DNA of 56,941 nt, the filler included, from Basidiobolus ranarum (Eukaryota): NCBI GenBank assembly GCA_040143965.1. It is 3 parts of 3 records of this genome, joined end to end, with 100 filler letters (N's around TTAATTAATTAA, not from the genome) between each part and the next. Parts side by side here need not be neighbours in the genome. Positions count along the whole stretch, not along the records: positions 19,055 to 37,981 come from JASJQH010007139.1; 2 more parts are not named here. One strand, 5' to 3'. Within the stretch, counting starts at the first letter, position 1, and each line of letters opens with the position of its first letter. Positions 10,367-38,081 of this stretch are shown here, one piece after another. The notes beneath the pieces are model-generated. The model had not been told where the DNA came from, ran no database searches, and saw nothing but the letters and a program-made list of their open reading frames with translations. Both the position numbers and the translations under genes were made by a program.

Positions 10367-10935
10367 AATATTACGTCAAAAACACACTTTGCTTTTAGAC
10401 TAGAAACTAGGTATTAGAGATTTGACGACTATTTATATTCCATTCTTATTGTATAATTATGGCTTGTATCTCAAAGAAAGGATACCCCTTCCACGTTCAT
10501 GATCATTCATCATTACTATATTGATTCGGGGTGTCATACAGTACAAGATCTAGCCTTGCCGACCCTTTAAGGGAATTTTCCGAAATTGTATTGATTGAAG
10601 AGGTGGGATCTACAAGTTTAATTTTCAAACATCAGACTCAGCGATATCCTCTCCTCCATATTCTCGGGCCTTCGAGGTTGGAAGTGCGCGTGACTACATT
10701 CGTTTCGTTGTAGCCATCATGTCCCTTTCTAGACAGTCATTTACAAGCATCGTGTATAATCCAGTTATTCAGGGTTTATTACCACTCTTACAACATCCTT
10801 CACACACTTGGCCATAAACCAACTATTCAAAGTAACTCTGGTAGTTTGACACCTGTAGAAACTATGTATTGTAAGCGAATGTAATCCAAGGTCTATTCAT
10901 AAAGATATCGGATAATGGAAATATTGAAAACCGTT

Positions 10936-13565: not shown

Positions 13566-14133
13566 ATGCCTATTGAATGCACTTCCTATAAAGAGCCCTT
13601 AATGCGATCGATTTCTTCTACTAGCCTTCCCGGTGCAGTGGCTTCAACCCAAACAATGTTTTATGAACAAAATCTATCAGATCCCATGATGTCTGAGCTT
13701 AAACGTCGCCTTTCTTCTGTATCTCCTCCTCGTCCTTCCTTCGAAACAGATATTCCACCAAGTCTTCGTCGCTTTCAAAGTTTACGTAAAATCCGATTCC
13801 GGGATATACCTTTACGTATCCAATGCCCATGTTGTCATAGCTACTGCACTACGAGATTGAGACTCAAGAACGGGTCAGCCGTGTGGCTGAGCTCATTAGG
13901 CTTGTAAGTGTTCTCTTAACATCTGCCTATTTGCTATGATAACTCAACTATTATTGCTAGGTTTATGCTTACTGGTGTATTATTTTGGGTTCCGTTTATA
14001 ACTCGTTTGTGTAAAGGTAAGTTGATTGAAGTGTTCACTTTGAAAATGAAGGATATTGATCTAATATCCTTTAGATGTTGTCCACGAATGTCCGAGTTGT
14101 CAATATCCAATCGGTAGATACCGCCGCCTTTAA
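13566..14133 (+). CDS. LITAF-like zinc-ribbon membrane-associated protein, 3 exons
   Basis: CPCC, then a hydrophobic stretch (VWLSSLGLFMLTGVLFWVPF), then KDVVHECPSC after two gtaagt...ag introns. TAA at 14131-14133. Confidence 0.88.
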
Positions 14134-18954: not shown

Positions 18955-19054
18955 NNNNNNNNNNNNNNNNNNNNNNNNNNNNNNNNNNNNNNNNNNNNTT
19001 AATTAATTAANNNNNNNNNNNNNNNNNNNNNNNNNNNNNNNNNNNNNNNNNNNN
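18955..19054. other. Assembly gap / artificial linker (N44-TTAATTAATTAA-N44)
   Basis: N runs flank a palindromic 12-mer with stops in all six frames. Confidence 0.97.
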
Positions 19055-19956
19055 TATGGTCATAAATTACCCAATCGAGTCTTCAGAGCTACCAATCATG
19101 GTTGAGATCAAGTTTTTTAACCAAGGATATGCTCTTATTTTCTTTCAAGGTTTTTGATTCATTTTAGTTGTTACATTTTTAGACATAGGTAAGGAGTGGT
19201 TCTCTTGGATACAAATTAGACCTGCACTTACTGTTATGAAAATCAATGAGTGAGTTTGAAGAAAGTGAACTCATCAAAGTTCCAAGTGAGGAATTTTTGC
19301 ATAGCATAACTGTAACTTAGCATTCTACAACACATTGATTTCTCAGTAAGAATCGATCATTTTCACCTTATCTACCATCAATACTGAAGTTACTTTTTGC
19401 TTCCTATTCAAAATGAGCATTAACAGTGACTCATTTAAGTGAAATTTGAGCTACACGTAGCACATAGTTAAGGTTGTATCACCGCAAAAACTAACTACCT
19501 TTCAGTTCGATAGAAAAGATACGGACTGCTTTTTCTACCGACATTTTTGGATATCCATCAGATTTACGTGTCCAAAGAGAGCGCGAATCAACGACTATTT
19601 ATGTGAATAAGGCATACACATGACTCTGGAGTGCTATCAATTGGTGTGAATCAGTATCTATTTGCATGGACTCTTAGCCTAAAGTAGCCCTCGTGAATAG
19701 TTATTTCACTTACCATTCACCAGTTTGGTCATCAAGTGTAGTTTAGCCGAGTGTGTGTCCATCGGTTCAAGTACCTAGAACGTATACGTTGTCCATTAAA
19801 TGAAAGTCCCTATTGGTGACTTTCAAGGGTTTATCTCCAGAAAAATACGAATTAGAACTTTGGTAGATTCAGTAAACGTGGTATTGGGATTTTTTCCAAA
19901 TATAAATATTTATCATGGTACAGCTTTCGTAGATTGAATCGATTCCTTTGGTGATC

Positions 19957-22059
19957 ATGGCCTCTCTCCGCCTCCATCGAGGCTTTACTAGACTATCTTT
20001 GACGAGAGCATATAACATCCGTGGTAGATGTATCCCCACTATTTCACCCGTTAGACCTATAACCCCTTTAGCAAATACCAACACTTGGTTTCGGGAAATT
20101 AATTCCTCTTTTTCTACCACATCAGTCACCACATTTGCTGCTGAATACGAAGAAGATCCCACCAAAGCGAAACGCTTCGTGGATGAGACTGATGTCATCA
20201 TTGTCGGTGGAGGTCCTGCTGGTTTATCTGCTGCCATCAAACTAAAGCAACTTGCTATCAATGCTGGCAAAGAAATCAAAGTAGTGGTTGTGGAGAAGGC
20301 TGGCGAATTAGGTTGGTAAAGTTGAATTTTGGAATCAAAATAGAAATTTAATCACCTTTACAGGCGGACATACTCTGTCGGGTGCTATACTTGAGCCTAG
20401 AGCTCTAAACGAACTCATTCCAGACTGGGCTGAAAAGGGGGTATGTATCTTAAATGTTCATAATGAATTTCAATTTTTATTCACCATTGGAATATTTTGT
20501 AAATAAGGCACCATTAAATCAACCTGCGCTAAAAGATCGAATGCTTTTTCTAACCGAGAAATTCTCTATTCCACTCCCTCATCCTCCACAAATGACCAAC
20601 AATGGAAATTTTATTGTTAGTTTAAATAATTTCACTAAATGGTTGGGTGAACAGGCCGAGGAACTAGGCGTGGATATCTACCCTGGCATTGCTGCTAGCG
20701 AGGTATATATCTCAAGGATGATGTACTAATAATATCACTAAACTCACGCTCACTATAGATCATATATGATGAAAAAGGCCGAGTTAAAGGGATTGCCACC
20801 AACGATGTCGGTTTAGACAAAAATGGGAAACCCAAGGTATCAGATGAGATCCATTTACTCTATTCCTAATGCTAATACTAATGGTGGTCTATATAAAGGA
20901 AAGTTATGAAAGAGGAATGGAGATTCATGGCAAAGTTACTTTATTTGGTGAAGGTTGTCATGGTTCTTTAACCAAAACATTGTTTCAAAAATACCAATTA
21001 CGCGAAGATTCTCAACCTCAGACATACGCCATTGGTTTAAAGGAAGTATGGGAAATTGACTCTTCTAAACATGATCCCGGTCTGGTGCTTCATACCGTTG
21101 GTTGGCCGGTCGACTATAAAACATATGCAGGTTCCTTTGTGTATCATATGGAAAATAACCTTGTTAGCATTGGATATGTGGTAGCTCTCGATTACGAAAA
21201 TCCTTACCTCAGCCCATATAAAGAATTCCAACGATTTAAGCAACACTCTGCTATTAGAAAGTACTTGGAAGGCGGTAAATGTATCTCCTACGGCGCTAGA
21301 GCTTTGAATGAAGGTGGTTATCAGTCGATTCCCAAGTTAATATTCCCTGGTGGTGCATTGATTGGCTGTACCGCTGGATTCTTGAATGTTCCCAAGATCA
21401 AAGGAACTCATACTGCCATGAAGAGTGGAATGTTAGCTGCTGAGGCAGCATTTGAGGCCCTTTCCAAAGACGAAGAGGTGACTGAACCCCTTACACTTAA
21501 CTCTTACGAAGAGAACATCAAGAAATCTTGGGTTTGGGATGAGCTTTATGAGGTTCGAAATGTCAGACCATCATTCCACAACCCCCTCGGTCTATTCGGT
21601 GGTATTATTTACTCCGGTTTAGATACGTTATTTTTGAAGGGGAGAGTCCCATGGACCTTTAAGCATCCAGGACCTGATCATGCCATGCTTAAGCCCGCCA
21701 AAGATTGTAAACCTATAGAGTATCCTAAACCCGATGGTGTGGTATCATTTGAGTTACTGGAAAACCTGGCTCGTAGTGGCACTAATCATGCAGAAAATCA
21801 ACCAGTTCATTTAAAACTACATAATGAAGCAATTCCTGTTCAACGTAATTTGAAAATATTCGATGGACCGGAAAATCGATTCTGTCCAGCTAACGTATAC
21901 GAGTATGTAGAAGACGAGTCTAATCCAGGTCAAAAGAGGTTGCAAATCAATTCCCAAAATTGTCTGCACTGCAAAACTTGCGATATCAAAGATCCCTCCC
22001 AGAATATCAATTGGACCGTTCCTGAGGGAGGCGATGGTCCCCAATATTCTTACACATAG
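19957..22059 (+). CDS. ETFDH: Electron-transfer flavoprotein-ubiquinone oxidoreductase, mitochondrial, 5 exons
   Basis: Arg-rich presequence; [16 protein letters not shown] (FAD binding); [22 protein letters not shown]; 4Fe-4S motif RFCPA...[13 protein letters not shown]. Confidence 0.97.
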
Positions 22060-22554
22060 TCAGTTGAACAACATCCGGTTCATGTCAATCAACCCAAGTA
22101 AAGAAATGATTTACATGTATCCTTAGAGTAGTGGTATGTTAAGATAAACCTTGAGCAATTATTGGCTGAGCTCTACATAACTTGAATCTCAATTAAATCA
22201 AAAACACGAATAAAACTAATATAGTGGACAAAATTGATTTGAGGTACATCCCATTTATTGGTTGAAACTAACTACAAATACCACTTCATTACAGAAGTTG
22301 AACTGTAGTTGATGAATTGGCCAATTGGGATTGGAGGAGAATTCAATATTGGTCAAAAACTTGCATACACTTAGTAAAGGTGTATACCAAGAGAACTTGG
22401 TGCGAGTTTTTCGACATTACTGCCACCACTGAAGAGCATCGCATTACCTGACTTTATTAAATTCAACTGACTTATTCCTCATTCACTTGGAATATTTGAA
22501 CCAGATCACTATACCTGAAAATTAACGGGATTTCTTTCAGTCAGGACTGATATT

Positions 22555-24516
<1,962 letters not shown>

Positions 24517-24690
24517 ACATTGAATGACTACCTATGTACTTTTATCACGAAAAAAAACCAGTTCTGGCTGAGAATTCATTTCTACCAAAAGGTTGTTCTC
24601 TTTTAATTAAATACAATTATTGTTTAAAATCTCTTCAGAGAAGGTTAATAAAAGGATATCACTACCTCGTAATAAATAAATCAAACTCCC

Positions 24691-25140
24691 TCAAACTTTG
24701 AACATACTTTTTATCACACCCATATCCATCTTTATCTGATTTTCACTACTCCAGTCATATATTTGCTGAGCCTTGGGGCGAATTTCCGAATCATTCCAAA
24801 GTCTTAACAGAGTCAACATTCCTGGGGGTTGCTCAGGGTTCCAGCTTATTCCTTTACGACGTAATATAAGAAATAAGGAATCTAAAGCCTCCGTAATTTG
24901 TTCGTCGCGAAGAGCTCTATTCACAATTGGGTGGTCGATATTCAAGATACCACTTACTCGAGCAAGTGGAGTGGTTTGAAATTGTCGAAGAAAAAGGGCT
25001 TTGGTATGTAGAGGAACAGCAGCCGGCTTATGAGTGGTAGTAAGCTTTCGAGAAAAGCGAGAGTGTGTAGAGATTAAAGGAAATATCGCCCCTCTAATGA
25101 AGGTAACAACGCGTAATAATCGAGGAATTATAAGAAACAT
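24691..25140 (-). CDS. Hypothetical 149-aa protein with probable mitochondrial presequence
   Basis: ATG-started intronless ORF filling the intergenic space; Arg-rich, acid-free N-terminus followed by a helical-looking domain. Confidence 0.55.
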   Translation of the reverse strand: MFLIIPRLLRVVTFIRGAIFPLISTHSRFSRKLTTTHKPAAVPLHTKALFLRQFQTTPLARVSGILNIDHPIVNRALRDEQITEALDSLFLILRRKGISWNPEQPPGMLTLLRLWNDSEIRPKAQQIYDWSSENQIKMDMGVIKSMFKV

Positions 25141-25423
25141 CTTGTAAACCTTGTAGACGATATCCTGTCTACTTCAACAGGAGTTCTACAAAACCTATTG
25201 CTACTTTACCCCACATCAAGAGTTGTTTATAACATTCCTCCAAATTTCCGCAATTCATTATCTGCTCTTGTGTTTCACGAAAAATATTCAGTGATATTTA
25301 GACTTCATCAATATTTACATAAGATTAATCAAGGTTGGTATTTCAGTTGAAGCATTTATTATCTTAATATTCTATCCAAAGTTTAAATACATTTTACATA
25401 TGTTGGTGTGCTGATGAATCTGT

Positions 25424-26341
25424 TTATAAAATACCCCACAAATCCTCGAGAGCACAGCAAACTTTTCCGCAAGCAACAGAAGCAGATAATGGGTACTCAC
25501 TGATACCAATCTTTTCATCAACATATGCGTCCGCAAAATTATCCTCACCGTGAGCAAGGGCACCAATGGAAACGACGAGGTTCTGGTCTTCAGGGATAGT
25601 TTTGACCCACTCGGAGATACGGACGGTGGCGGCATCATAAGAGAAACCTACACAAACATTAGTCAATATGAATTTCAATAAAGTCCAATATTTCTTTGAT
25701 CCGTACAAATCTTTTTGGAGTTGGCTGGAAGATGATCTGTGATGGGATTTTTGATAACCTTCAGAAGTTTCTCTGAGCCATTGACAGACCGAATACTCAA
25801 TTTATGAAGAAGTTGAACTACACAAGAAAGGTTGAAGAGTCAGTACAGGAAATACCCCAGGAATTAATAATCATATACATACCCATAAGTCCTGAGAAAC
25901 GCTTGAAAGTTCTAGGGATACGAACGTGAGGATTGACTTCAATCAAAACATTCTTGGCAGTGTGAATGTAGACTTGGAGCAAACCAGCCTTATTCAAGGG
26001 ACTGTCTAAAAGAGTGAGAAGACACTATACAAAAGGTAAATAAGTAAGCCCTTCAAAAACCGAATCATAAATAACATCATAGTACAAACCTGATGTGTAA
26101 TATCGGGACGAGAATCGGCGATATCCTTTCCCATCTTCTTCAAGATGCCTTGATGGTCGTCACAATTGAGTAGTTGATAACGCGCTTCTTTGTTCTTACC
26201 AATTTTGTAAGTTTCAAGACAGGCCGATTCAAGGACAACGATTAAACGACGAGACTTTTCACGTTCAGCTTTCGTCTTGGGGACTTTTGGTGCCTTTGGT
26301 ACCATAAAAGCATCGGTATCCTTACGTTTAACAGAACTCAT
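25424..26341 (-). CDS. EMG1: 18S rRNA pseudouridine N1-methyltransferase Nep1/Emg1, 4 exons
   Basis: [68 protein letters not shown]. Confidence 0.97.
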
Positions 26342-26700
26342 TTTAGGTAAAAGATAGGTATCGAGTAGTACTTCGAAATATACCACGGTGATAGTGAAGC
26401 AACTACATATTTGCCAATTTCAACCACTTGGTTTTTTTCTTTCAAGACTGTTCTCTGATCTCATTAATTTTTTTTTTCGCATCAGTACAACACCGATCAA
26501 ACTTCGCAGATAATTCCTGCTCAGGTCAACAATCCAATCTATACTTCAATGTTGTCTATCTTCATTACTAGAATTTGGCATAGCCTAAGCAACTACTATA
26601 CTATATAGAGGCTTTTTATTTCACAAATACTTTCAAATATTGATGAGGCTGGGCGTATATTGCAGAAGAGAGGAAGTGAAGTAATCATCGTAGTAAGCTT

Positions 26701-27867
26701 TTAGCTATCTAAACTACGTCCAGGACCTGGAAATGGATTAGGCGATGCGTTACTTGAAGGATTATTAGATTGGATGGGTGAGGCAGTGCGGCTGTTATGT
26801 AATGGTAAACATACATTAGTTGGTATGTATTGGCCACAAGTCTATAATCTTATAAATCTATTACATTCCACGTCTTGAATCGGAGTTGGTACTTATTGAC
26901 CCGTCTGAGGGATCTATTTCTGTCTGGAAAGTAGGTAATAGTCCATATTGCTCTACACTACGTACGAAACGTGGGTGATTGACTACTTTGGTCAGGAAAG
27001 TTCGCTCCTCCAATCTTTGAAAATAACCAGTGGCTGGAATGATAATCTTGAAATAGTTAAAAATATCTAGAATTCGAGTCTATGTTAGTATTACGAGTAG
27101 GAGTTGTCCGAGTAGATTTAATAACTCACATGCATATCCAACAGCCATTGCGATGAAGTGCCCCCAAAACGCCACGCCAGAGAATAGTATAGAGGTAATC
27201 AAGAGTAAAAATAGTGGATATACAGTTGATGGGATATTAAATAATCCACAGAAACTACAAACACGCAATTTGAGGTTAGTAAAGCTTCTATTCTACGACC
27301 AATAAAAGTACTCAATTTACCTGAGCGGACGAGGAACCCGACATTCCCAAACAACAAGAATAAAGATTAAAGTAGAGGTTCCAGCAAGAAGTCCAGCCTC
27401 GATGAAGGGCAAAAGAGAGCTAAGAATGTAAATTGAGGCAGGAAGGAAGGTAAACACCACAAAAAAGATGTAAAGATAACGAAAAGTTCCCATCGACAAT
27501 TCAAAATGTGCACTTAAAGGAATAAAAGCTATCATATTGAAGAAGATATGAAGAAAACCGACGTGCGGGAACGGGTACGTAATTAAACGGTAAACTTAAA
27601 ACCAACAGTTAGGCTTGATGTTCTCGAGGTATCAACTAGATCTGCGGAAACTTTACCTTGACCAGACTTCACTCCTTCAGCCCATAATCCAAGCTCTGTG
27701 GCAAGGTTCAACTTTCCCCATGTGAAAGCATGTATTGAGTAGCAGGAGGCACAAATCACGGCTATCCCCAAAGTTAATACAGGTAAAGTAAGCATATAAT
27801 TTCTTAAAGCTTCAACTCCATAATTAAAAGTGTTGCGCACAGCTGGTAAATTTAGTCGTGAAGACAT
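26701..27867 (-). CDS. Rhomboid protease, Rbd2-like, 5 exons
   Basis: GQVYRLITYPFPHVGFLHIFFNM; GxS (AGTS); FWGHFIAMAVG catalytic His; C-terminal FPGPGRSL. Confidence 0.85.
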
Positions 27868-28245
27868 TAAACAGGTTTGTAGAAACTTTTTCACTCGTAA
27901 TTAAGAAACAAAAAGTACACAACAAATGTATATTTACGTAGATAAGTGTTGGCCAAAAATAAAGAAGTATTATTTGGATATTGCGGACTGCGTTATCAAA
28001 TATAATGCAGTTAGGAGAATGAGGGTACCAAATTAGGTGAAGGGGAAAAGGGGTGCTGCTCCGCAACCAAACTTTCACAGATTCACACTAAATGGATGTC
28101 ACCTATCACCTATCACCTGTGATTGATCTAGAATTAGTCTTTGTAGGACTAAGCACTACCATTGTATTATTGGGTTCAATAAAGTTGTGTACAGCAAGGA
28201 TAAATGATAAAAATATTACATGAGATCTCAATAAAAACTAAGATA

Positions 28246-29492
28246 CTAGGGCTTGCTCATTAATTCCAAGTCATGTTCAAATTCATTCCGGAGATATTCA
28301 AAACAAAGCAACCCAAGAGAAGATGCTGGAACGGCTCTCAAAGCGTTAGTTACAACGCCTTTGAAAAGAAATTGCTGATAGCCCTTTTTGTTTCCGAGTC
28401 TGATGCATTCCCGGATGGTTTCTACATATGTGGTTCGAGTACGGTACCTGATCTCAGCCTGTGACGCTTTGACAAAGAAAACTTTTCGGATTTGCTCGAA
28501 TGGATGATCAACTGCCTGGTAAAATATAGCTGCTAATGCACCAGATCCTAGGACAAGTAAAGGTTGTACCCAAAACTTAGGTTTGACTAGTTGTGAATTA
28601 ACGTCGGCTAGGTCTCTATCACGATTGGCGTGCTCCACTGCCATTTTATACCCTTGCTTTTTGGCCAACTCGAAGACTCCAAAGAAAATGCCGTATCCTA
28701 GTGCATCCTGTTTTATGGTATGTTAGTATATCAAACATTTATTATCGTCGGGATATAAATGTATACCTTTACTAGAGTTAACCCCAGCCCACGATACAGG
28801 GTCGCGACTCCTAGTTCCTGAACCATGCTTTTTGTGTAAGCCATAACACTCTTAAATTTTCCATCAATCATTTCTTGAACATGAAATCTTGCTTGTATCG
28901 AATCTAAAGGAGTTGCTATAGTGGAGGAAACAGCCCCTGCCAATGCTCCAGCAGTGAATGCATTGCTGAAGGTCTTGTACCCAGAAGGATTGAGACCAGA
29001 ATCTGGATCCAAAGATAACAAAGTTGCCGTATAAACAGTGAAGAGAGAGATACCAACAGCTGTATTAGCCAGAAGAGGCGGGAGGACATATCTATGAATA
29101 ATATCAAACTATGAAAAGTCAATATAAGTTTTTAGGAGACACAATAGCTGATTAATGAATAGCATACCCCTCCGTATTTAACTGCTGCTGAGATCATACC
29201 AAATGAGGTGCGGTATCCAACACGCTCTTTAGCTGGTATTATTGCTTTTACCACCCCAAGATAATCTACTCTCAATGGTCTGAAGAGCTATACTTTCCAA
29301 ATTAATAAACGATTGCGTACGTTCCAATTATATCACTATCTTGCTAACCTTCAACGGTGTTTTATACCAAAAGTACAAGGGCTTCATTACAGCCGCACGT
29401 ACAATTCCACTGGTTATACCAATATCTTTAGGACGCTTTGCTGAGTTTTCAGACTCGAAATCGAAATCACTGATATACAGCCTTGTGTCCAT
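28246..29492 (-). CDS. Mitochondrial carrier (SLC25) family protein, 4 exons
   Basis: AGALAGAVSSTIATPLDSIQARF, LYRGLGLTLVKD, HPFEQIR, LFKGVVTNALRAVP. Confidence 0.87.
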
Positions 29493-29735
29493 TTGTCTCC
29501 AAGTTGCAAAAGTCTGTACCCCTAACTACTACAAGGTTACCAAAGCTCATTATTAAACTAAAATCATTTGATCTCATTTCAAGTGTAATAGTGGGGTGAG
29601 CCATATATGGTATCCCTTGCGGAATACAAATTTGAATTATAATGTAAATATATATAGTCTCAGTCACGTGCTTTGGGGGATTCAGCTTTTTATTGTAAAG
29701 TTGAATATAAAAATGGCATATAACTGAATCTAAAT

Positions 29736-31055
29736 CTAACTATTAATTCTACAAGCTTCCAAGATAGCGCAACGAAGTTCAGTTATCCCGACCTTTTTGG
29801 TGGTACTGATGGGTAAAACTTGAGGGAAGCAACTAATGGTATTTTGGGAGAGCTCAGTTTCAATTTCTGAACGTATTTCGGCCAAAGCGCTGCTAGATAG
29901 TTTGTCAATTTTCGTGAGTACCACCTGAGTTTTGTGAATCAAATTAGCCTTGATAATGACAAAGAATTTAACAAACACATACTTGATAAGAGACACCCAT
30001 TCCATCTAAAAGAGACATCAAATCTCGATCCTTCTCTTTAAAGCTATGAGTGGCCTCGATAAGAACGAAAATTCGGCGGAGTCTGATGTAGAAAATTAGA
30101 GATAATCGTAGAGCACAGCAATATCTTTGATGACTTACCGGGTGCTTTCTCTAAAATAATCCATACTCATAGTGCCCCACTCGTCCCAACTACGGAATCC
30201 ATATCCTGGCATATCCACCAGCACCAACTTGTCTGCCATCGAAAATGTGTTCAAAAGCTTAGTGTGGCCCTGAGAAAAAAAACCTGATATCAGCAAAAGG
30301 AGTAAAACTCAATGAGTAGATAATGCACGTACAGGAGTCTTGGATGTTTTCACTAAACGATTTCGGTTTGCTAGCGCGTTGATGATAGAGGATTTCTACG
30401 AATACAGAGTCTATCAGATAATAAGTACTAACAATCAATTAATGGTCCAAAACATCCATACCCCAACATTACTTCTACCCACGAAAGCTACCTAGTATAT
30501 CAAGAAGATTTATAGCGTCAGCAAGTGAACAACCTATAGTTACAATGACAAACGAAATAAAAATTAGTATAAAAATATTCACACCTCAGGGAGCGTTTTC
30601 AACTTGAATTCAGTATGTTTGACCGCAGAGTGCACGAAATAAGGATTTTTAGTAAATATGGTATCAGCCAATTCCGATAACTTCTTTCCAGGTTTCGCTT
30701 CTGTAAATTCTACTCGAAGAACCTCTTTTTTTTTAGCAATTGGTACGACAACATTCTCCTTTGAGGTTTTTTGAATTGTGTTTTCATTCTTTAGAGCCGA
30801 CTCATTTTTCTTGGCAAGTTTCATATTCTTCGCATGTTGTTGTGGAGAAATGCGCTCACGAGCAGGTCCTGGCTTGCGAGCTCGTGGGCTCCCAGGTTTT
30901 AAATCAGGTCTTATGTTATTTCGAATAGGCTTGTTGGCTGAATTAAAAGCATATCTGATTCCAACTGTAGGATAGCTTTTTCTCTCTACGTGTCGCAGAA
31001 AATTTAAAGTCAAACTTGTCGGAAAGGAAGTAACGGTTGGTCGAGTGAACCACAT
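29736..31055 (-). CDS. EngB/YihA-family ribosome-biogenesis GTPase, probably mitochondrial, 6 exons
   Basis: Spliced G1 LPEVAFVGRSNVGKSS, G2 SKTPGHT, G3 LVDMPGYG, G4 VLTKIDK; presequence-like N-terminus. Confidence 0.92.
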
Positions 31056-32244
31056 TATCAAATGTCCACTATAGTAATGCTTTACGATTTGGCACCAAGT
31101 GAAGGGCTAAGTGAAGAATGATATATCAGCTTTGACTGTATACTTGAATCGTTCATGAAATTTCTTAGTGCCGATTCCAATTTACAATTCACCTGTACAT
31201 AATTGAATTTTATAGTATGAATACTTAAATGAACCTTGATCGCGTCAAACAGACAAAATTTGCAATCTTTGGCTTGGTAAACAGAATATGGTTTAATTAT
31301 TGTGCTAAATATAATTAATTTTACTTCGCATGTGACAGGACTTTACGTTCGTACAGATTTTGGTTAGAAGATAATTCATTATTTGAGAGGCACTACATGT
31401 CTGAGTTTTTTGATCTCTGTGTAGCTTATAGCAGATAGAAATTTGCTGAGTCTACTACACAGGCATCGATATTACTTATAGAGCTCTCTACATACAACAT
31501 AAAGGCACTTTTAGCAAAGCAAGATTTATATGCAAACACTGTTTTTTGAACAAAAGTAGCCGATATTTGTTAGAACCCTCCATTACTAACATAGTATTTC
31601 AGCTGATACACAAGTCCCGAACTTCTCGGAGTTGAAGCAAAAAACTGGTTTACTCTTTTCGATCTTAAATCATCAGAAAGTGGGCGTATTCATGTACAAA
31701 CTTTGAAATCAGGCTATTTCTGAATTTAACAATGGGCAGTTTGATTGGGGCTACAGCAGAATGATCGTGATGTTATCGTATACTAATGTAAACAAAGATT
31801 GGTATTTGGAGATGTACTTGAATGTAAATTTCACATCCATTATGATCAAGCGTTAAAAATACATACGGACTAACCGTAGTTACATGTTTGGTTACAATTA
31901 CTATCTGTTAGTAAAGGCAGTTTGAAGTATAGAAAAATTACCAAATGAGAGAAAGCTTAACGCTTATTTAGATATTATTTTTGGCTTTTGACATTTGATT
32001 TAAAGGGGAACACTTCAATAAAAACAAAGGATTAATTAAAATAAAAAATGTGGTTTATAGAGATGGTAAGAATCACTCTCGAAATAAATAACTAAAATAG
32101 AGAAATATGAAGGGGAAGGGGACTGTACATGACGTTCAAAGTGATGATTTTCTTTACTTCGTTTGTTCCTCACATTTGTCGTAAGTTATTCTTAATGATT
32201 GCACGTTCTTTAGAGGGGATTCGGGATTGAATGGTGAAGTGCAT

Positions 32245-35200
32245 TTATAAGATCCCGTTCGAGTAATATTGGAAGGTATCATAAAGACGAGTAAACACGT
32301 TACAGCAACTGCTAATAATCAGCTTCTCCAAATATTCATCCACTTGCGCCTCTGTTAAAGAGAGTTGGAAACGATCGCGTAAAGCAGCTACAGTAGATTC
32401 ACCAGTGTTCGAGAAACATGGAAGACTTGAGTCTGATATTCATATATGTATTAGTGACTGTACTTTGGTATTTGTTACTTTGAAATATTTACCCTTTTGC
32501 ATGATTTCCACCAGTAAGATAATATTGTCGGCAAATTTGCGAAGAGATAGGAAGCCTTGTTTGAACAGAGCTTTGAATTCAGCAAACTTTTCACTTTCAA
32601 CACCTCCCAATACATCCAGGTATTCTTGTGTTAATTTAAATGGAGCCATTTCAAACCCGACAGAGCCAGGTGAATTAGATAACATAAACCCAAAATCAAT
32701 GTCTAAAATAGAATATTAGTGAAACTTGAGTGGCATTCTACATATAATGATATATACTAACGGATAAGGTGGCCATCTGTCGCAAGGAGGACATTTCCGT
32801 TATGCCTAAAATGCAGCATTAGTTGGGCTCGTTTTAAATATTTGGCACAGGTGAGTGACTATCTATAAAACCATACCTGTCTTTAAGATGCAGAATATAG
32901 CAAACCAATGAATATCCCACCAAACTGCGCATAAAGTTGTCTTGTGCCCGTAGAAATTCAGGGGAATCAGGTGTTCCAAATTTCTATGAGGATAATCGAT
33001 TATTACTGATATCCAAAAATAAATATATCTGCAGTAAATAGAGGGTACCTGGACGAAGTAGTCATACAAAGTGAACACCACTCCCTGTTGATTAAGCTGC
33101 TTATTGTAGCCTTCTTTTTTAAGCGAATGTAGTGAAATCGTGTTTCGAACAGTTTCAATAAACCCTGACGAACTGGAGGTGACTAGTATACGATAACTTT
33201 AAAAAAATGGATGAGCTCAGATGAATCGACAACCAATATTATTGCATGCATTAGTTAAATCTTACTATTTAACCCAGATATCAATATCAGCCTCTCTCCA
33301 TATTTTCTGCATGACAAGAATCAATTGAAGCGCGAGTTGTTCCTGTCTCAGATCTCCACCAGTTTTGACAATGACTGGGAAAAGTTGCCAGTTAGGATGA
33401 CTTCCATATGGTGACGATGCACGAATCCGTTCTTTTTTAGCATTCCAGTCCTCTTGAAAAACGGCAGCTAATTTTCAAAGAAATTAAATTGACATGTAAA
33501 TGCTTGTAGTACAATAGAAGATACGTACCACTTGGATCATCTTTATGCTTGACGCTCTCTAATATATCCCCGTCATCCTCTAGAGTTTCACCTCCACCTC
33601 CTTCACCTCCATCGCCTCCAACGCCACTACCAATTCCTTCAAGCTTCATTTTTGCAATTCTGGCTTCCTCTAATGCCATCATTTTCTGTATGATTTTTTC
33701 ACGGATTAAATCGGTGGCTGATTGGTTTTTACCTGAGCTAGAAGTATCGACAGCCTTTGCATTGGATATACTACGGCCAGTTTCCCTCTTTTGACGTTCA
33801 GTTAACTGGGCAAGCATCACGGCAGCTGTACGCATATGCTCAGCGAAGCCATCAGTAGTATTCGAACTACGGCGGTTAACCACTGTCTCAAAATACTCTT
33901 TATTAGTTTGAGAGGCAGCAGGACTAGGGTGGGAAGACATCTCTTCAAACTCAGTGATATCCAAAGATCTGGTACTTGTGACGGAAGTAGGGACCTTAAG
34001 TTCACCACCTAAGAATAGATATCAATCAAACAGTTGATGTAGAGGAAATCGTTAATAAAGCGATTCACTGGTAAGAGGAGATTAACGTTTATACCCATAT
34101 GGATTGGCTCATTAGAAGAATCTGAGGAATCTGAATCTGATCCATTCTCCTCAATGGGAGCTGGAATCGCAGGCTTGTACTTTAGCAATGCAGATTCATC
34201 AAAATCAGCGTCTGTCTCGATAACTTCAACCATGATTAGATATGGGACCTATGAAATAGTTTGAGTATTTGGATGCAGAAATTGACGCGAGAACTACACT
34301 ACTTACTCTCTCAGCCGAATTGAGAACAACAGCATCTGATGGAGGGATTCGGACAATCTTGTGATGATATGGACTATCAGCAGTTGCCGGACACCACAGT
34401 GGTATACATACATCAGCGGGTAAATTATGGTTTAGCAGTGAAAGCTCGGCATGTAAAGAACTAAGTTTGAAAAGTTAAAGATAACCCTCTATGATGTTTA
34501 AAGATACGAAGGAACAATATGGCTCATTTCTTTTCAAAAAAAAAGGATATTTCTTGCTTTTTTTGGAAGCATGCACAGACGATTTGATATATCTACCAAG
34601 GCTATCACAAATGACATTTCTGAATGGAAGTAGTGTCCGTCTATCAATTGCTTGCGCCTGGAAGGCTCTGAACCAAGGAATAGATCATATTCAAAATCCG
34701 AATCTGATTCGGGAACTGGTGAAGTAGCCTCAGAGTATGACTCAGTTTCCCTTCTATCAAACGATCTTGAAGGAGAAAGATTCAGCGTAGATATGCGCTC
34801 GAAGCTTCGTCTACCAGCAGTACTTTTAATGTAGTGACCAAAAGAAAATGCTCTTCCTTTATGTAAGTCTTCTAAGGTGGGTGAGGATGTAGGGATCCGA
34901 GATGACCCCGGGGATAAATTCAAGGATGTGTTTTGGTTCGGAGTATCCTGCGATTCAGCATTAATGTCTTTTTCTTGAACCTCTGAGCCATTTGTGTCAG
35001 CCTTGTTAGTATCTTCAACCTGTTTCACAGGCGGGTAGAAAGGTGCACGTCGGCCCTGATCAATAGCCATTTGTCCAGCGCTTATAGCAAAAGCTGGACT
35101 GACTATCCCTGCAAGGAGAGCACTCATCCCAACAAGTGCGGGGAAAGGATTCTCCCTTACTTTAACCTTTCTTTTAGGTATTTCGTTGCCATCATCGCAA

Positions 35201-35704
35201 GATTCCTTAAAGATTATATTTTGAACTTGGCTGTGCATACGTTTGCATAATCTATAGGAGGATGAATGGGGAGTTGACGATAGATCAGACATGTATGCCT
35301 GAAGATACCAAAAGGTCTACAAAATATACAAGTAACAAATTAGTGGAAAGTCTCATCAAAGTGATGATCTTAAGAAAATACCAAAATAGCTATGTGAGTG
35401 GATATTTTGCATCTATCAAGTAAGAAGTTTTCTAACGAAACCGATTGCTCTGGGCGAGATATCAACATATGACTAGAAAGGCGAAGTAAGAATAATACTC
35501 AAGGGCACAATAATACCATGAAAGGTTGTACCATATTTGCGGTAAGAAGAATTCGATTTCAGACACTGGAAATTTCTTCAATTCATTACACAAGTAATGT
35601 TGAATGCCAACTGAGTCTGGATATTTGAAAATATAGGAGATGGCCAACCAAGAGGTGAAAAATTCAGAGTTGAAAAGTCGCAAGAGTAAAGAATTTGAAG
35701 TCAT
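32245..35704 (-). CDS. PIK1: Phosphatidylinositol 4-kinase III-beta, multi-exon, includes one AT-AC intron
   Basis: LLLRLFNSEFF...IEFFLPQI, LNSAERVPYL, DDPSAAVF, VIVKTGGDLRQEQLA, KDRHNGNVLL, HIDFGFMLSNSPG, FEMAPFKLT, RLYDTFQYYSNGIL*. Confidence 0.95.
34465..34550 (-). other. U12-type (minor spliceosome) AT-AC intron, 86 nt
   Basis: 5' ATATCCTT, branch-like TATCTTTAAC near the 3' end, terminal AC. Splicing gives LPKKAR-I-SSLHAELSLLNHNLP. Confidence 0.9.
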
Positions 35705-36562
35705 GGCTATTTCAGTTAATCTCCGAATAAGCTAAACTTCCATTTAAAGTCACGAAAAGTGAGATTAGTAAACAACCACAACTACTAGAGGTTTTAGCGT
35801 TAGGAGCTTTCAATCTGGGCCAAATTGATGTATATAAAACAAAAACCGCCGCGTAGCTGAAGCTCTATTGTTTAGAGAGCTGATCTCACATGATAGGTAT
35901 CAAATTAATTGATATGGATGGGCATTAAATGATTAAATCATGCAACCCACCTGAGATATCATTAAATATCGGGTTATCGTTTAATTGGGATAAATTCCCA
36001 TCTTGGTTGGTCACGGACTGAGTTGAACTAACAAAAAGTTACTTTTCCAAACATTGACTTTGTAAAGTGGCTCTTTATGAGATCTTTTGCGATCTCCAAT
36101 TGTCTGGTTATATCCATGTCTTTCACCATCAACGAATCATTCGGTTGAACATTAAAGGAGAACGACTTGACTCCTGAAAGTCATCCTTGGTAAACTCCTC
36201 AATAATTATAACATTCTCATCACAATTAGGATATTAAACATTCATCACGAAAATAGTTGTTAACTTAGTCGTATACTTAGGAAATCTAATCAAATTGTAA
36301 CAAAATTGTCAATTCAAAATCAACTAAAAAGATTCATACCAGTTAACAAATTAGAAAATAGTATTGTTTCATAATATATCTTTGGCTTGTTGAACAAAGT
36401 GCAAAAGGTAAAGCACACACGATCTATTTTGTTATCAGTATTGTTCCATTGTTAACCTGAAGGCAAAACTTAGACTTTTCTTATTAGTTTGAATTGTGTG
36501 AGAAAAAAGATCTGGTGCTCGCTATTGTGCTCAATTGCCTAGTGTTCACCTCGCTTTAGATA

Positions 36563-37975
36563 ATGAACAATTCTCGTCAACCGCATTCTCAATCGTCTTC
36601 TACATCACCTAAATCATCTCAAAATTTTCCACCCATAATCCCTGTCTCGCAAAGTTTAACCTCAAGGTCTACGTTCAACGCCTCATTCATAGAATCGGTG
36701 ACTAGTACGAACGCGTCTGGCGTTGAAGAAAAAGAAACTATTTCAGTGGTCTCAACAGAAACTAATACTTTTACCACTACTAGTACTTCAGAAAATCCTG
36801 CTTCTAACTTCAAGTATAGTAATAACGAAAAGGAAAAAATCCGTTTTTCCATTGTAAGAAAATCAGCGGGTAAATCAGCAAATGTTTTCAAAAATACTCT
36901 TTTTCAAAGTACACCTGAAGATGACGAATCCCAAAAGCAAAGCCCAAATGTTGCTGTGATAGCCAAAAATGATGAAGAATTACAGACGAAAGAAAATGTT
37001 AATCTCAGGCCTGAAAAAGCTTCTAAAGAAGTCCAAGATACTATTTCATATAACGGAACTCATCGTGAAAACTCTAGCAGGAAAAGATCTAGAAGTCGAA
37101 ACTCTAGTCAAGATATTATTTCCCAGAAAAAACATACTTTTTCAAGAGAATCTAGGTCCATTGCTTATGAATCAACACCATATAGACGCTATTCTCCTAG
37201 AATGCGTTCTAGAAGTCCTCATCGATACGATTCACAATGGCACTACAGTCCTAGAGGACATTCGCGTAGCCCCCAATATTATCATAGACAACGCTCCAGA
37301 AGTCCCAGTCCATACCGACATTATGAAAGAAGAGCCGGAAGAAGTCGTTCTAGAAGTCCAACTTCTCGGTATCAGCACTATGAACCTCGCCGGCGACGTT
37401 CGCGAAGTAGATCAGGAACCCCATCTCAGGGATATGATAACTGGCGGTGGAGATCAGCCGAACACAAGAGGTCTTACAACGGGTACGATTCATATCGTAG
37501 GGGTTACTCTAAAAGTCGATCCAGAAGCCCTTACTCTGGTTATGACTCATACAGAAGACGTTCCCCTCGAAGCCGTTCTCGGAGTAATTCTAGACCAACT
37601 GGATATCACTACCAAGGATCCACGAATTGGTCAAGAGGCCACAATTCGAGGATTCAACCTTCTTCAGGGCTATATCATAAAGAACCCGTTAGTCTATCGA
37701 GAAAATATGAAAACTCGGATTTAATGGAGGAAAGAAAGGCGGAGCATGCATCGAATGATCGAAATATAGCGCCGCCTCCGCCCCCAATAGTATCACCAAA
37801 GCCACCACCACCTCTGTCTGAAGTTAAAAACCCAACACCAACACCACCCCCGCCTCCTCTTTCTGAGCTCAAGATTCCAACGCCGCCACCTCCACCTCTA
37901 CCTGAACATAAGAATCCCAACCCGCCACCACCCCCATTACCTAAGTCTAAAGGTTCGAGCCCGACATCGCCATAG
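36563..37975 (+). CDS. RS-domain, polyproline-rich protein; probably an N-terminal fragment cut by the contig end
   Basis: 470-aa ORF with repeated RSRSRSP motifs and four PPPPP(L) blocks; the stop lies 6 nt from the gap. Confidence 0.75.
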   Translation: MNNSRQPHSQSSSTSPKSSQNFPPIIPVSQSLTSRSTFNASFIESVTSTNASGVEEKETISVVSTETNTFTTTSTSENPASNFKYSNNEKEKIRFSIVRKSAGKSANVFKNTLFQSTPEDDESQKQSPNVAVIAKNDEELQTKENVNLRPEKASKEVQDTISYNGTHRENSSRKRSRSRNSSQDIISQKKHTFSRESRSIAYESTPYRRYSPRMRSRSPHRYDSQWHYSPRGHSRSPQYYHRQRSRSPSPYRHYERRAGRSRSRSPTSRYQHYEPRRRRSRSRSGTPSQGYDNWRWRSAEHKRSYNGYDSYRRGYSKSRSRSPYSGYDSYRRRSPRSRSRSNSRPTGYHYQGSTNWSRGHNSRIQPSSGLYHKEPVSLSRKYENSDLMEERKAEHASNDRNIAPPPPPIVSPKPPPPLSEVKNPTPTPPPPPLSELKIPTPPPPPLPEHKNPNPPPPPLPKSKGSSPTSP

Positions 37976-37981
37976 TTTGCC

Positions 37982-38081
37982 NNNNNNNNNNNNNNNNNNN
38001 NNNNNNNNNNNNNNNNNNNNNNNNNTTAATTAATTAANNNNNNNNNNNNNNNNNNNNNNNNNNNNNNNNNNNNNNNNNNNN
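37982..38081. other. Assembly gap / artificial linker (N44-TTAATTAATTAA-N44)
   Basis: Same structure as 18955-19054. Confidence 0.97.

Follow-up and report, generated by a model that had tools for sequence, protein, structure and literature searches.

The PIK1 locus of Basidiobolus ranarum

The window, by which we mean the whole 56,941-nucleotide stretch of Basidiobolus ranarum DNA that was analysed, carries on its minus strand a phosphatidylinositol 4-kinase gene, PIK1, whose third intron is probably a U12-type intron with AT-AC termini (Table 1). The window is interrupted by two linkers (18955-19054 and 37982-38081), each composed of 44 N, TTAATTAATTAA and another 44 N, so it is a concatenation of three contigs in which genes on either side of a linker are neighbours only artificially; the middle piece, 19055-37981, has 18,927 bases. 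Up to the end of this piece runs a 471-codon open frame on the plus strand (36560-37975) with an Arg/Ser-rich middle containing RSRS and SPRxRSRSP repeats and a Pro-rich tail, a predicted product that resembles an SR-type splicing factor or SR-related protein.

The identity of the kinase gene is well established. When the 51-residue exon 4 was used as the query of a protein search, 226 of 255 candidates were at E <= 0.001, the best match being a deposited 906-aa B. ranarum protein named phosphatidylinositol 4-kinase pik1alpha (P0001; 100% identity) and the next a 900-aa protein of B. meristosporus CBS 931.73 (P0002; 98%), with no further Basidiobolus protein among the exon 4 matches. Orthologues from Mucoromycota and Glomeromycota followed at 71-84% identity, and human PI4KB chains in the PDB (6gl3_A, 4d0l_A and others, representing six distinct sequences) matched at E values from 3.9e-5 to 3.1e-4. 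The B. ranarum model maps onto the window as 12 blocks that span 35704 to 32248 and are 100% identical to it; its precomputed Pfam families are PF00454, PF21245, PF11522 and PF00613. Members of the PI4K-beta/Pik1 family (type III phosphatidylinositol 4-kinase beta) are recognized by a PI3/PI4-kinase catalytic domain, a helical region of the Pik1 type and their orthology to PI4KB, and all three are present. The exact mapping and the PI4KB matches together identify the gene as PIK1/PI4K-beta. Ten of its introns are GT-AG introns of 58-86 nt, and the remaining one, of 86 nt, has AT-AC boundaries.

Table 1. Features of the PIK1 locus, in window coordinates
Feature	Position	Strand	Description
PIK1/PI4K-beta coding region	32245..35704	minus	12 exons, 906 aa
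Exon 3 (upstream of the AT-AC intron)	34551..35316	minus	exact match to P0001 residues 89-343
End of exon 3		minus	...LCMLPKKAR, then base 1 of the Ile codon
Probable U12-type AT-AC intron (intron 3 of 11)	34550..34465	minus	86 nt, phase 1
Putative 5' splice site ATATCCTT	34550-34543	minus	immediately follows 34551, where exon 3 ends
Putative branch-site motif TCTTTAAC	34481-34474	minus	one mismatch to the consensus TCCTTAAC
Intron-terminal AC	34466-34465	minus	seen in the sequence; boundary compatible with P0001
Exon 4 (downstream of the AT-AC intron)	34307..34464	minus	exact match to P0001
Start of exon 4		minus	bases 2 and 3 of the Ile codon, followed by SSLHAELSLLNHNLPADV...

The boundaries of intron 3 and the machinery that would remove it

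The boundaries were assessed by enumerating, for each of the 11 inter-exon gaps, all donor/acceptor pairs near the block ends that reproduce the B. ranarum protein model. Ten gaps each have a GT-AG solution. Within the searched range the third gap has a single compatible pair, the AT-AC pair 34550/34465; since both Basidiobolus proteins are themselves predicted gene models, this agreement is a matter of consistency and not independent proof of splicing. An initial annotation of this DNA had proposed a U12-type AT-AC intron in PIK1 at just this place, and its coordinates are exact on the minus strand.

U12-type introns are recognized by the 5' consensus /RTATCCTT and by a branch site resembling TCCTTAAC, located some 10-15 nt before the 3' splice site. 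With slashes marking the splice boundaries, the sense strand across intron 3 reads ...AAAGCAAGAA/ATATCCTTTTTTTTTGAAAAG...GGTTATCTTTAACTTTTCAAAC/TTAGTTCTTTACATGCCGAG, or, in a longer view, ...CCAAAAAAAGCAAGAA/ATATCCTTTTTTTTTGAAAAGAAATGAGCC...GGTTATCTTTAACTTTTCAAAC/TTAGTTCTTTACATGCCGAG... The 5' site is an exact match to the U12 AT-AC consensus, and both terminal dinucleotides, AT and AC, are in place at the only boundary solution compatible with the model. Between the second A of TCTTTAAC and the end of the intron there are 10 nt, so that the branch adenosine is probably 34476 or 34475. What the initial annotation had read off the sequence, namely an exact U12 5' site, a branch site some 10 nt from the end and a terminal AC, is borne out in each respect. 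Among the 11 introns of the gene a U12-like branch motif is found in intron 3 only, in none of the 10 GT-AG introns; four of those 10 have CTRAY, 13-23 nt before the 3' end, a motif that intron 3 lacks.

The reading frame tells the same story. One base of a codon lies upstream of the intron and two lie downstream, which makes the intron phase 1, and its removal completes an Ile codon and yields the in-frame ...LPKKARISSLHAELSLLNHNLP... Retention, by comparison, gives ...KKARNILFF and then a stop, as had been anticipated. Four splice models were computed in all: the AT-AC model, retention, the AT donor with the AG at 34462-34461, and a GTGCAT donor at 34576 with that same AG. The third of these is out of frame and was ruled out.

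The fourth is the only in-frame GT-AG rival, and it is absent from the initial annotation. It would make the intron an ordinary U2-type one of 116 nt, giving ...DISNRLSLHAELSLLN..., and it has canonical dinucleotides in its favour, but it is contradicted by the orthologues. From the 120 matches listed, 69 proteins of at least 700 aa were aligned (67 of them from outside Basidiobolus, with no anchor failures), and the AT-AC model is gap-free against all 69, which upholds the earlier claim that removal restores a continuous PI4K sequence. The GT-AG model deletes the 10 residues CMLPKKARIS and so opens a 10-column gap against these orthologues, every one of which keeps the segment without a gap; it is aligned, for instance, to VIVPKEARMS, and one example reads RLVIVPKEARMSALHAEL. 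Among the evidence that does not draw on the Basidiobolus gene models, this alignment gives the predicted AT-AC junction its strongest support. The GT-AG pair also conflicts with both deposited Basidiobolus models, its GTGCAT is unlike the donors of the 10 GT-AG introns in the gene (GTA in nine and GTT in one), and under it the exact ATATCCTT and the arrangement TCTTTAAC(9 nt)AC would have to be a coincidence. We therefore regard an ordinary GT-AG intron as very improbable.

We take the 86-nt segment to be a genuine U12-type AT-AC intron, intron 3 of B. ranarum PIK1/PI4K-beta, with a probability of roughly 0.92, and we infer that it would be excised in RNA and would depend on the minor spliceosome, whose snRNAs the B. 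ranarum genome presumably encodes. From what is established about minor splicing, the U11 snRNA and later U6atac would pair with the 5' site ATATCCTT, U12 snRNA would pair with TCTTTAAC with a branch adenosine bulged out some 10 nt ahead of the 3' end, and excision between 34551 and 34464 would join A/TT as the Ile codon.

Terminal dinucleotides do not by themselves settle which spliceosome acts, and a few AT-AC introns are indeed removed by the major (U2-dependent) spliceosome, so the boundaries could be right and the machinery wrong. Against this stand a 5' site that is the full U12 consensus ATATCCTT rather than anything U2-like, the position of the branch motif, 10 nt ahead of the 3' end, the lack of CTRAY in the intron, and the hundreds of minor introns called in the genus; U2-dependent removal of the intron is, in our estimation, highly unlikely. 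That the 86 nt are not spliced at all, but represent inserted DNA in a pseudogene, an error of assembly or a point where the gene ends or restarts, draws some colour from a fragmentary assembly and a window of three contigs joined by linkers, but is scarcely credible given that none of the 12 exons is damaged and each is 100% identical to the corresponding part of a full-length 906-aa model that carries kinase domains, that the boundary motifs are perfect and that 86 nt falls within the 58-86 nt range of the other PIK1 introns.

It is important to stress that the case for a U12-type intron goes beyond chance through the exact coincidence of the motifs with the two homology breakpoints, and not through their mere occurrence. 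Under a loose definition, the combination of 5' site, branch motif and terminus occurs twice in the window (shuffle mean 0.47; at least two in 16 of 200 shuffles), so its presence somewhere in the window is unremarkable. With the two junction points fixed, the probability that both motif sets fall on them by chance is about 1.6e-8 per fixed junction, as calculated from motif frequencies in the window. The 5' motif RTATCCTT is itself abundant, with 16 occurrences in the window against 6.03 expected, a count attained in none of 100 shuffles. The remaining 15 sites are unconvincing as U12 introns, and only two of them are followed by a loose branch motif and then AC or AG: the site at 55451 (plus strand; motif TTCTTGAT) was rejected because the stretch resembles continuing coding sequence, and that at 10485 (minus strand; motif TCCTTGAT) because the motif is more than 540 nt away. 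Two further copies of RTATCCTT form an inverted pair, at 14049-14056 (minus) and 14064-14071 (plus).

Within intron 3 the 9-mer TATCTTTAA occurs twice on the minus strand, at 34498-34506 and 34475-34483 (coordinates counted by hand along the intron string), 23 nt from start to start. The 3' copy includes the branch motif; the 5' copy, which reads TCTTTAAAC, is at a distance of about 33 nt from the 3' end, which is more than is typical of a U12 branch. It may have arisen by duplication or may serve as a decoy site.

Minor splicing in the genus and the intron position in other fungi

Minor splicing in the genus Basidiobolus is already in print. Larue and Roy (2023, PMC10639083) give 249 minor introns called by intronIC in B. 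meristosporus, which at 0.554% is the highest share among fungi, and 205 in Rhizophagus irregularis, with no convincing support in Ascomycota and Basidiomycota; a low ancestral minor-intron density is reconstructed there for Zoopagomycota. A second survey ('Taxonomy of introns', 2024, PMC11347168) counts 237 in B. meristosporus. Its main text names U11, U12 and U6atac snRNAs and a putative divergent U4atac in this species, and its Table S7 gives U11/U12/U4atac/U6atac as 2/1/1/1 putative and 2/0/0/1 above Rfam's threshold, the status of U12 and U4atac as merely putative following from the order of the columns in that table; a coordinate sheet gives two U11 and one U6atac. In the B. ranarum window itself, no Rfam family, and hence no minor snRNA, matched at the gathering score, 57 kb being uninformative about the genome. 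At E values up to 1 the window gave two unrelated matches, one to a miRNA family and one to a CRISPR repeat family, each scoring well under the gathering score of its family.

The initial annotation also expected that an annotation restricted to GT-AG introns would mis-model this gene. Both public Basidiobolus models, that of B. ranarum and that of B. meristosporus, read ...LPKKARISSLHAEL... across the junction, with identical residues, and thus PIK1 is not mis-modelled in practice. No literature pairing 'PI4KB' with 'minor intron' was found, nor, in the searchable supplements, a per-gene list of Basidiobolus minor introns with a PI4K entry. As far as could be seen, intron 3 of PIK1 is individually undescribed, yet an ordinary member of a published class.

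To what extent other lineages share the intron was addressed with metagenome contigs, which when scanned with an exon 4 alignment gave 31 loci. Seventeen of these (L001-L017) were inspected, those in which the match starts at residue 1 or 2 of the exon, the other 14 being left out; three pairs are near-duplicates (L002/L003, L009/L010 and L012/L013), so that independent lineages are fewer than loci. In 16 of the 17 the homologous codon is read straight through without an intron. By best match one locus is Rhizopus-like (L001) and four are Glomeromycota-like (L002-L004 and L006), their best matches being Glomus cerebriforme (78-81%), Paraglomus occultum (97%) and Racocetra and Cetraspora (97-98%); the other inspected loci have no more than 27-43% identity to any named match and so stay unassigned. 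The seventeenth, L005, allows no judgement, since its contig supplies no more than 26 nt upstream and these include an in-frame stop.

Two side observations concern introns near this position. L005 is a PIK1 paralogue locus of Rhizopus-like type; there, the 26 nt that precede the homologous position contain a GTAAGT in addition to the in-frame stop before the contig ends, and the locus may have an intron near the position homologous to that of Basidiobolus. In three distant, unassigned fungal PIK1 loci a GTGAGT donor directly follows ...NLPAEV (1549-1560 in L015, and the equivalent place in L016 and L017); this intron is at a different site, some 17 codons further downstream than the one in Basidiobolus.

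As for human and mouse, PI4KB, Pi4kb and PI4KA have no occurrence in the eight files of human and mouse minor-intron tables of PMC6717393, the same files in which PTEN, STK11 and MAPK8 are present as positive controls, and none in four supplementary files of PMC7507305. Together with the 16 loci that lack the intron, the absence of PI4KB from these lists indicates that intron 3 of PIK1 is not a widely conserved minor intron.

Such a distribution may be explained either by gain in Basidiobolus or by loss in many lineages, and the data fit both. A gain specific to Basidiobolus, or the conversion of a lineage-specific intron from U2 to U12 type, in place of an ancestral relic, is a tentative suggestion that we consider rather unlikely. 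It is kept open by the absence of the intron from 16 of 17 fungal loci, including Glomeromycota-like ones from a group that keeps many minor introns, by the lack of PI4KB in the human and mouse minor-intron lists searched, and by the low ancestral density reconstructed for Zoopagomycota as against the highest fungal density, that of B. meristosporus, in PMC10639083.

Significance and comparison with known systems

Taken alone, intron 3 of PIK1 carries little weight, being one more well-formed candidate U12-type intron in a genus rich in minor introns. It does provide a clean AT-AC substrate for tests, short at 86 nt and situated in a gene that is essential and well conserved, and the empty position in the other inspected fungal PIK1 genes is a data point on whether the minor introns of Basidiobolus were gained or merely kept. 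If many of them proved to be alike in this respect, Basidiobolus would join Physarum as the second example of a substantial gain of minor introns.

Among the systems that invite comparison, the PIK1 loci of other early-diverging fungi are alike in protein and different in gene structure. Eight of them (L001-L008) have 71-80% identity over the exon that follows the junction, and in L001-L017 the flanking ...VPKxARxS/xLxAEL... is conserved as in Basidiobolus, but at this point 16 of the 17 lack the intron and L005 allows no judgement.

The human STK11 AT-AC minor intron (PMC6717393) is of the same subtype as PIK1 intron 3, and in its 5' site, listed as AAT/ATATCCTTT, the string ATATCCTTT is identical to that of B. 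ranarum. The gene is unrelated, however, and the human intron is 823 nt long compared with 86 nt in PIK1. The branch site is listed as GTGTCCTTAGCG for STK11, as against TTATCTTTAACT in PIK1, and in the Minor Intron Database table of the same supplement the branch sites of PTEN and MAPK8 are CTTTCCTTAACT and TTTTTCTTAGCT, respectively.

A close known system is provided by the U12-type introns of B. meristosporus, with which the predicted PIK1 intron shares the genus, the intron class and the architecture of 5' splice site and branch site. The surveyed species is B. meristosporus and the window comes from B. ranarum; the residues across the junction in the orthologous protein model of the former are identical to those of the latter.
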